DNA of 22,035 bases, from the UHGV virus genome UHGV-0200595. One strand, given 5' to 3'. Positions 2,723-3,456 of this stretch are shown here, one piece after another (within the stretch, counting starts at the first letter, position 1; the number at the start of each line of letters is the position of its first letter). Under the pieces are notes generated by a model. It saw only the letters and a list, made by a program, of their open reading frames with translations. It had not been told where the DNA came from and did not search any database. Source of the DNA: a virus. The position numbers and the translations under genes were made by a program.

Positions 2723-3154
2723 TCATTGCTTCAGTTCATGGCGGGCAGCTTCAGCGATGAAGTGACTGCGGTCGCGATAAACGTTGCTGGCCTTTACTGC
2801 ATTATCGATCCGCTTAATCAGCGTATCAGGTAATGAGATGTTTATGCGCTGAGGCTTGCCTTCGAATTCTGACAAATCAACGTCGACCATAACCCAGCTG
2901 TCGAAGTCTTTATATTCTGGATTAACGGAATAAACCAGATAGCCAGCATCCTTGATATCTTCGACAGCAACATCGTTATTCTGAACCAGGTCTTCGACAA
3001 CCATCAGGATAGCTTCTTTCACCATTGGGGCAATCTGGTCCTGAGTATCAGCAGCGGAGAAACATCCGTAATCGTAAGCTGAAAACGCGGGAACGATCAT
3101 ACCGTAGGCGGTCTTTTCATCTTTCGGCGTCTCGACGCCCACTGAGAAGAACAT
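2723..3154 (-). CDS. hicB: Type II antitoxin HicB (HicB fold plus C-terminal ribbon-helix-helix), 143 aa
   Basis: N-terminal HicB-like region; C-terminal RINISLPDTLIKRIDNAVK...RSHFIAEAARHEL RHH DNA-binding motif; GGAGG SD 5 nt upstream; immediately downstream of hicA. Confidence 0.8.
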   Translation of the reverse strand: MFFSVGVETPKDEKTAYGMIVPAFSAYDYGCFSAADTQDQIAPMVKEAILMVVEDLVQNNDVAVEDIKDAGYLVYSVNPEYKDFDSWVMVDVDLSEFEGKPQRINISLPDTLIKRIDNAVKASNVYRDRSHFIAEAARHELKQ

Positions 3155-3178
3155 ATCAACCTCCAGAGAGGGCGGGGA

Positions 3179-3361
3179 TTAGAACCCCGCCAGTTTTTTA
3201 ATGGATTTGACAGTGCCGAGAGGTAAGTCCTTTTTTGGATGCGGAACCGGAAAAGTTTTTCCGGTTATCGGTGACCACCATATCTGGTGGCTTCCTCCGT
3301 TATGCCTTTTGAGTTCACATCCGGCAGCAGTCAATTCCTTTATCAGGTCAGTAGATTTCAT
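3179..3361 (-). CDS. hicA: Type II toxin HicA (mRNA interferase), 60 aa from internal ATG
   Basis: GGSHQIWWSPITGKTFPVPHPKKDLPLGTVKSIKKLAG matches HicA signature; AGGAGG SD then ATG at 3361 (minus strand); the track ORF start at 3397 lacks an SD. Confidence 0.8.
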   Translation of the reverse strand: MKSTDLIKELTAAGCELKRHNGGSHQIWWSPITGKTFPVPHPKKDLPLGTVKSIKKLAGF

Positions 3362-3387
3362 GTTTCCTCCTGGCCTGAAAACTATTA

Positions 3388-3434
3388 TACACACCAATAC
3401 ACACGAAGCAATATTTTGTGTGTATTCGTGTGTA
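3388..3434. promoter_or_regulatory. hicA promoter/operator: four copies of TACACAC (two direct, two inverted) including a perfect 10-bp inverted repeat TACACACGAA / TTCGTGTGTA
   Basis: TACACAC at 3388-3394 and 3398-3404; GTGTGTA at 3418-3424 and 3428-3434; minus-strand TATAAT (complement of 3384-3389) and TTGCTT -35 flank or overlap the repeats. Confidence 0.6.
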
Positions 3435-3456
3435 AATTTGATGGGGTGTTATTAAC

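Follow-up and report, generated by a model that had tools for sequence, protein, structure and literature searches.

A hicAB toxin-antitoxin cassette with conserved promoter heptads, opposed to the lysis genes of virus genome UHGV-0200595

The virus genome UHGV-0200595, a stretch of 22,035 bp analyzed here as a whole (the window), carries between its Q-type antiterminator gene and its lysis genes a toxin-antitoxin (TA) operon, hicA-hicB, that is read against its neighbours. The locus raises the question of what a plasmid-type addiction module does in such a place, how it would be controlled there and what late transcription running against it would mean for its action. A sequence-only reading had proposed a 60-residue HicA toxin and a HicB antitoxin built of a HicB fold and a ribbon-helix-helix (RHH) domain, and both the open reading frames (ORFs) and the Pfam searches agreed with it. 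We consider it probable, though far from certain, that the cassette is expressed in the lysogen, autorepressed by HicB and attenuated by an internal hairpin, and that it serves addiction or competition from a cargo slot where its orientation insulates it from late transcription, which would silence it at induction. The window corresponds to a human-associated metagenome scaffold (L019), with identity over the called genes from the terminase to Hok, and does not derive from any sequenced E. coli.

Identity of the two genes and their plasmid relative

The hicA product was assigned to HicA_toxin (E-value 2.6e-17, 63 bits versus the cut-off of 27) and the hicB product to HicB_lk_antitox (2.4e-28, 99 bits), with RHH_1 on HicB residues 103-143 (21.5 bits versus the 20.5-bit cut-off, 2e-4; all Pfam). 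In PDB, HicB matched B. pseudomallei HicB (6G1N, 7e-12 over the full length) and Y. pestis HicB3 (4P78, 9e-8), and HicA matched B. pseudomallei HicA (4C26, 1.4e-9) and Y. pestis HicA3 (4P78, 5e-6), with His25 of its G-S-H motif aligned with the catalytic His28 of HicA3. The toxin gene comes first in the bicistronic operon (hicA 3361-3179, then hicB 3154-2723, 24 bp apart). Class 4 of the type II HicAB systems comprises hicA-hicB operons whose HicB bears an RHH domain at its C-terminus (Gerdes 2024, PMC10865869); the locus shows the HicA domain with its catalytic histidine, the two-domain HicB and the toxin-first bicistron of this class. The PADLOC and NCBIfam models gave no useful match for the cassette, only a weak similarity to the RHH of NikR. 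No copy of the cassette was found by megablast among the sequenced phage isolates, the best phage HicB being 47% identical. An 84-codon plus-strand ORF opposite hicA (3201-3455) was dismissed, as it lacks a ribosome binding site (RBS).

The closest studied relative is HicA^T^B of the IncI2 mcr-1 plasmids (p45), whose HicA and HicB are 85% and 61% identical to those of the window. Cassettes with 72-75% DNA identity are borne by ~690 plasmids, mostly conjugative and of the IncI2 type. The two systems have in common the hicA-first order, the 24-bp spacer, the GGCGGGG...CCCCGCC hairpin before the hicB GGAGG, and the promoter elements -35 TTGCTT and -10 TATAAT. They differ in that the window copy is prophage-borne, lies antisense in a late region and has four intact promoter heptads and a CUCUCU tract after the hairpin, whereas plasmid HicA^T^B has GTATGTA-TGC-GTGTGTA without the distal arm and a UUU tract. 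In the plasmid system HicA is toxic and HicB neutralizes it, HicB represses its own operon, and the hairpin acts as a 'noncanonical internal terminator' that leaves hicB mRNA ~10-fold lower and sets the HicA:HicB ratio; the cassette also favours its plasmid when plasmids compete (Lin et al. 2025, NAR, PMC11878559). Toxicity and neutralization are predicted for the window pair as well, and the purifying selection on both genes and the decay pattern of L016/L017 (H25Q together with a frameshifted hicB) support this indirectly. Of the marks of the HicA^T^B subfamily, the GC-rich hairpin that occupies the 24-bp spacer just ahead of the hicB RBS was found but a sense-strand UUU tract was not; because of the CUCUCU tract, the cassette is called here a close relative of HicA^T^B with no claim of a working terminator.

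The ratio of nonsynonymous to synonymous substitution rates (dN/dS) versus homologues was 0.03-0.21 for hicA and 0.03-0.09 for hicB, with dS reaching up to saturation, which indicates strong purifying selection on both genes. A separate observation concerned the synonymous rates, dS of hicA being 4-8 times below that of hicB in close pairs (the window versus L002, L003, L005, L015 and L025). Extra constraint on hicA was rejected as the cause, since the low hicA dS vanishes in deep pairs; mosaic recombination with breakpoints inside the cassette therefore accounts for it, the half with hicA and the promoter having been exchanged more recently.

The promoter heptads and the intergenic hairpin

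The expected four TACACAC/GTGTGTA repeats in inverted arrangement were located at the hicA promoter. On the plus strand TACACAC lies at 3388-3394 and 3398-3404 and GTGTGTA at 3418-3424 and 3428-3434; read on the hicA strand, the layout is TACACAC-GAA-TACACAC-(13 nt containing the -35 TTGCTT)-GTGTGTA-TTG-GTGTGTA-TAAT. The heptad pairs form 20-nt inverted arms (3388-3407 and 3415-3434) that are 90% complementary, with 10-bp phasing within each arm. These four are the only matches to TACACAC on either strand of the window, and shuffles gave 1.4 window-wide.

Homologous cassettes from one E. coli prophage, three species-representative genomes, 14 viral contigs and three metagenome contigs were compared. 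The TTGnnT / 16 bp / TATAAT geometry is conserved nearly throughout while the surrounding bases vary; the promoter of locus L028 has a perfect TTGACA -35. The proximal pair, placed between -35 and -10, did not vary in 16 of the 17 distinct upstream sequences, one heptad being retained in L016/L017. Upstream of -35, 14 distinct loci carry the distal pair, while L001 and L004 do not; the lineages without it are E. coli E7-1N7, in which the cassette homology stops exactly between the two arms, the chromosomal Phytobacter copy, Pasteurella phage Pmp4 and the IncI2 plasmids. When 2.9 million viral contigs were scanned with the four-heptad pattern, 14 matches came up, all 14 directly upstream of a hicA, and four of them are new loci with HicA 93%, 44%, 44% and 30% identical to that of the window. 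The arms stand 12-15 bp apart in the 14 four-heptad loci and 15-17 bp apart in further loci of the scan (12-17 bp overall). The four heptads are a conserved promoter feature and no chance repeat.

The heptad also occurs with more distant HicBs: Pmp4 (HicB 47% identical) has the proximal pair, and in Pseudomonas phage phi3 (35%) GTGTGTA-TAA-TACACAC lies over the -10. The RHH beta-strand reads R-x-N in all six HicBs with GTGTGT operators and K-x-N in two phage HicBs with other repeats, a pattern that, in this small sample, fits the heptad as the RHH recognition unit. From these sequence patterns we infer that HicB binds the heptads. A parallel is offered by omega of pSM19035, an RHH repressor of short asymmetric heptads in direct or inverted orientation, presumably with one RHH dimer on each. 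The omega heptads are contiguous at 7-bp spacing as against 10 bp at hicAB, and the proteins are unrelated outside the RHH fold.

According to the review PMC11594946, RHH-type HicBs are tetramers with two RHH heads; Y. pestis HicB3 is described there as an RHH tetramer with two operator sites flanking the hicA promoter, the site over -10 being the main operator. The window resembles Y. pestis HicA3-HicB3 (4P78/4P7D) in the RHH-type HicB, the putative two-site layout with the main site over -10 and the correspondence of His25 to His28. It differs in that the relationship is distant (9e-8 and 5e-6) and that in Y. pestis the intergenic region spans 174 bp and the sites are 15-bp inverted repeats instead of phased heptads. 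B. pseudomallei HicAB (6G1N/6G26/4C26) is the best structural relative: its beta-strand is of the R-I-N type, its HicB is tetrameric and its operator overlaps -10; the difference is the single palindromic operator site reported for it. Excess HicA destabilizes the DNA binding of this HicB, according to the same review (PMC11594946). The suggestion that the window operator suits an RHH tetramer stood insofar as HicB is of the RHH type and the heptads are inverted. It failed for the four heptads as one unit for one tetramer, the distal pair being dispensable; the varying distance from arm to arm also speaks against a single rigid complex in contact with all four heptads.

The intergenic GC hairpin, which the sequence-only reading had missed, folds at -15.5 kcal/mol (z-score about -3.6) on both strands. 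On the plus strand it is followed by T6, and the terminator scan scored it as a canonical terminator. Its stem is identical in the IncI2 plasmid locus (L036) and present in almost all related loci, Pmp4 preserving it via a compensatory G-C to A-T double change. The UUU tract after the hairpin was seen in the plasmids and the L008-L014 clade. Downstream of hicB, most loci have a terminator, different from that of the window and often clearer (e.g., L005, L015).

A separate feature of the operator arms is that their spacer bases shift in step across both arms in the window (3388-3434), L005-L015, L025 and L028. The variable base of TACACAC-N-AA-TACACAC stays complementary between the arms (G-C in six loci, C-G in three, U-A in three), and the covariation score was reached in 0 of 500 shuffles. 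Symmetry is also kept by the spacers GCA/TGC of L025 and CAT/ATG of L028, L015 has a symmetric variant too, and the TAA/TTA and GAA/TTC types are each found in several clades (more than one). In HicB, the RHH strand KPQRINISLPDTLIKRID is constant apart from single substitutions in two loci, which do not track the spacer. Since the spacer covaries while this strand stays constant, the change should be either concerted at the DNA level, which template-switch correction of quasi-palindromes would allow, or selected as a hairpin, which the RNA fold of the arms (-23.9 kcal/mol, z-score -6.4) would allow. The covariation thus suggests concerted palindrome evolution or hairpin selection.

The cargo slot, late transcription and the role of the cassette

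As the sequence-only reading had stated, hicAB lies on the strand opposite to the late operon: the Q-type antiterminator, the methylase remnant, both holins and the endolysin follow one another on the plus strand (Table 1). The promoter scan found no plus-strand promoter for the lysis genes between hicA and the first holin, where the 57-bp gap is occupied by a terminator, and three plus-strand terminator-like sites lie between Q and the holin (2132-2151, 3171-3191 and 3457-3472). Because the lysis genes lack a promoter and lie behind terminators, late transcription would, on the lambdoid model, have to cross hicAB antisense. The architecture hence supports the readthrough that had been proposed.

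Throughout this HicAB clade, hicAB is opposed to the flanking late genes in all prophage and viral loci; in L028 (HicA 30% identical) the upstream ORFs are co-oriented with hicA. The cassette was found downstream of three Q families (DUF1133, PF06323 and 82-like Q) and upstream of three holin types (Phage_holin_8, S21-like and another in Citrobacter L003), and in one clade between a methylase gene and a glycosyltransferase-like gene ahead of the terminase. Among its neighbours in the Q-lysis slot are an LT-II-like AB5 toxin (Citrobacter), a divergent Shiga-toxin A homologue and the full-length methylase. Exactly at this place phiP27 carries a methylase, tRNAs and stx2e before a common holin backbone, so that the cargo slot of phiP27 and the Stx phages (methylase-tRNAs-stx2e-holin) parallels that of the window (methylase remnant-hicBA-holin). 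The difference is that stx runs in the direction of the late operon and shares its induction, whereas hicAB is always opposed. Lambda bor is an antisense moron transcribed against the late operon and expressed in lysogens. The window cassette has its own predicted promoter, a terminator (weak in the window) and a variable presence at a fixed slot, as lambdoid morons do. A likeness may also be seen to Tha/Ith of Staphylococcus aureus prophages, a cargo system switched between lysogeny and lysis by opposed transcription units, although the proteins, the region (the lysogeny module) and the logic differ, the antisense gene there encoding an inhibitor protein (PMC11087260).

Put together, the locus would be an autonomous, functional type II TA cassette of the HicA^T^B-like order hicA-hairpin-hicB, carried as a moron by a phiP27-like lambdoid prophage. 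In the lysogen it would be transcribed leftward from its own sigma-70 promoter, and the RHH domains of HicB would bind the GTGTGTA heptads spaced 10 bp apart and repress the operon, with the proximal pair as the main operator and the inverted distal pair as an auxiliary one. Excess HicA would probably relieve this repression, as it does in Y. pestis and B. pseudomallei. Between the genes, the GC hairpin would reduce hicB expression relative to hicA and leave the system poised. We propose that hicAB, being always on the opposite strand, is shielded from Q-driven late transcription and active in lysogeny alone; in its slot between Q with its pR'-tR' region and the lysis genes, convergent antiterminated transcription should silence it after induction. 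The benefit is most likely addiction or competition, with retention of the prophage segment, and possibly defence, but not help in lysis.

Several observations weigh against this picture. The -35 element fits the consensus at only three of six positions, and because of this the consensus scan did not call the hicAB promoter. The sense-strand tract after the window hairpin is CUCUCU and not the UUU of the plasmid, so internal termination there is uncertain and may be weak. Among more distant phage hicAB loci the opposed orientation is common but not universal, the operon of Acinetobacter phage vB_AbaS_Gln being co-oriented with its neighbours. The orientation may have been inherited with the flanks by recombination rather than independently selected, and because the copies may share ancestry with their flanks, its recurrence is no statistical proof of selection. 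The role may be addiction, defence or none, and no PADLOC model matched the cassette.

The sequence-only reading had suggested that antisense readthrough might couple toxin release to lytic development or serve as abortive-infection defence. As a programmed trigger, this would mean that antisense RNA and polymerase collision from Q-antiterminated late transcription stop hicAB expression, that HicB decays and that free HicA cuts mRNA, as lysis coupling, a fail-safe or abortive infection. Consistent with it, only antiterminated polymerase should pass the three plus-strand terminators, and with no promoter at the holin it would cross hicAB antisense. The antisense position recurs in many prophages, an antisense layout controls the S. 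aureus prophage defence gene (PMC11087260), and the plasmid relative, making more HicA than HicB, is poised (PMC11878559). The trigger needs a labile HicB, however, whereas the HicB of the plasmids, 61% identical, persisted in lysate for 12 h, as compared with a lytic cycle of ~1 h, and activation via HicB decay was considered unlikely by the authors; deletion of plasmid HicA^T^B left resistance to the lytic phages tested unchanged (PMC11878559). Free HicA would also cut the late mRNAs of the phage, at a cost to the phage, and the missing PADLOC match does not favour a defence role. We regard the trigger as unlikely, and toxin release coupled to lysis as a speculation that the stability of the related HicB weakens. 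Little credence is given to the idea that the cassette senses lytic commitment, whereby only Q-modified polymerase would pass the canonical plus-strand terminator, convergent transcription would shut the toxin-first operon and shift HicA:HicB, and the operator palindrome would double as a late-mRNA processing hairpin before the lysis genes. Were it true, such a sensor would provide the prophage with a fail-safe or a means to shut off the host at a set time.

The inverted repeat might, on the other hand, be mainly a nucleic-acid hairpin and not, or not only, an operator: a stem-loop of the late transcript (e.g., an RNase III or processing site before the lysis genes), a cruciform or a recombination hot spot. 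The strong RNA fold, the in-step base pairs with an essentially constant HicB reading strand, the symmetric spacers of L025 and L028 and the homology break between the arms in E7-1N7 point this way. Yet the distal arm is dispensable in four lineages, what is conserved is the heptad and its place relative to -35 and -10 rather than the pairing, and in phage phi3 the heptads are arranged differently. The covariation is limited to one or two positions, and symmetry of the arms can arise neutrally by template-switch correction. We find the hairpin explanation improbable as the main one and keep it as a minor rival of, or an add-on to, the operator. Finally, the cassette could be inert cargo in decay that no longer serves this prophage, as might befit its place beside a methylase remnant in a decay-prone region. 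Clearly decayed copies do exist: in L016/L017, HicA carries H25Q, a frameshift follows codon 35 of hicB, the proximal pair is down to one heptad and the hairpin has degenerated. The window copy shows none of these marks, its ORFs, His25, both RBSs, promoter, four heptads and hairpin being intact, and dN/dS is far below 1; inertness is very improbable. The reading that we favour remains the lysogen-expressed addiction or competition cassette.

The family, its presence in prophages, the autoregulation by HicB and the internal hairpin are already published (PMC10865869, PMC11594946, PMC4553209, PMC11878559). The heptad grammar across distant clades of RHH-type HicBs and the recurrent opposed placement in the Q-lysis slot beside toxin cargo appear to be new within the literature searched. 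The best-known site for virulence cargo in lambdoid phages, from Q to the lysis genes, is thus also a repeated host of a plasmid-type addiction module, always opposed. For one RHH-HicB clade a testable operator grammar can be put forward (GTGTGTA heptads, 10-bp spacing, R-x-N beta-strand), of which no description was found in the literature searched. The four clean heptads of the prophage lineage and the degenerate set of the plasmid lineage offer a natural contrast for studying how tightly a toxin-first operon is repressed. The understanding of TA systems is not changed by the cassette, which is a well-documented and fairly ordinary find.

Surrounding features and neighbouring genes

Table 1. 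Features of the hicAB cassette and its surroundings in the window.
Feature	Position	Strand	Description	Basis
Q-type antiterminator	1505-2047	plus	DUF1133/Phage_antitermQ	
Candidate late promoter and tR'-like terminator	2044-2157	plus	just after Q; TTGACT-N17/18-CAAATT (2044-2073), terminator 2132-2151 followed by a T run	
Methylase remnant (N6/N4 DNA methylase)	2154-2660	plus	C-terminal part only, 3' end frameshifted	Pfam profile positions 121-210 of 221
Hairpin after the hicB stop	2694-2713	minus	weak terminator-like end of the cassette	-14.7 kcal/mol, z-score -1.9
hicB	2723-3154	minus	143-residue antitoxin, N-terminal HicB (partial RNase H) fold and C-terminal RHH	Pfam
Intergenic GC hairpin	3171-3191	both	GGCGGGG-N7-CCCCGCC, hicA stop codon in the loop, ends 6 nt before hicB GGAGG	fold, terminator scan
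hicA	3179-3361	minus	60-residue HicA mRNA-interferase toxin, G-S-H motif with His25	Pfam HicA_toxin
hicA RBS	3366-3371	minus	AGGAGG, 6 nt ahead of the ATG	
Predicted sigma-70 promoter of hicAB	3384-3411	minus	-35 TTGCTT (3406-3411), 16-bp spacer, -10 TATAAT (3384-3389)	read from sequence
Proximal heptad pair	3388-3404	minus	GTGTGTA-TTG-GTGTGTA, fills the -35/-10 spacer and overlaps -10	putative main HicB operator
Distal heptad pair	3418-3434	minus	TACACAC-GAA-TACACAC, upstream of -35, inverted relative to the proximal pair	putative auxiliary operator
Terminator-like hairpin and T run	3457-3477	plus	20 nt before the holin start, part of the phiP27-like backbone	terminator scan
Lysis genes	3497-4704	plus	holins 3497-3889 and 3873-4157, GH108 endolysin 4159-4704	

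The late promoter just after Q is a candidate named by analogy with lambda pR'. The tR'-like terminator behind it was found by the terminator scan and folds at -13.6 kcal/mol (z-score -3.3). The whole segment (2044-2157) shares ~82% identity with DNA that lies unannotated behind Q in many E. coli prophages, and it gave a sub-threshold Rfam match to isrK, a small RNA of Gifsy-1; it is probably a short 6S-like leader RNA. An Rfam scan of 1900-3700 gave nothing real, the mir-3149 matches being artefacts of the AC/GU hairpin.

The methylase remnant has lost ~195 N-terminal codons, and its C-terminus is frameshifted relative to the 358-residue versions in L006 and phiP27. In L005, L006, L008 and L011 the full-length 358-residue methylase adjoins hicB. 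Homology to phiP27 and SerU-LTIIb begins at about 3447. Small ORFs co-oriented with the cassette lie downstream of hicB in several loci, and Pfam gave nothing for them.

Some of the neighbouring cargo genes are of interest in their own right. In L017 (5673-6587, minus strand) and also in L016 (IMG/VR 2875658422_000003 and 2872663256_000001), a 304-residue secreted protein of the RIP family adjoins the decayed hicAB in the Q-lysis slot. It aligns over its full length with Shiga toxin A subunits (E-value 8e-39 to 1DM0) but is clearly divergent, and it may be an undescribed Stx-like toxin; nearby 146-codon ORFs with signal peptides, duplicated in L017, could encode B subunits. In Citrobacter meridianamericanus (L003), a 300-residue ADP-ribosyltransferase like pertussis S1 and LT-A (6607-7509, minus strand) and a 126-residue LT-IIB-like B subunit (7909-8289, minus strand) are encoded beside hicAB in the late region of the prophage. 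Locus L007 (IMG/VR 2657244962_000004) encodes at 5682-6566, on the plus strand, a 294-residue coiled-coil protein with a weak C-terminal match to the ion-channel domain Ion_trans_2 and no PADLOC match, whose gene shares the orientation of hicAB within the same antisense cargo island. In the window itself, a gene with a ParB_N domain and a PF20691 (TAGT) gene lie on the plus strand at 5056-6775, between the lysis cassette and the terminase, as seen by Pfam on the identical contig L019; the two may form a DNA-modification module.

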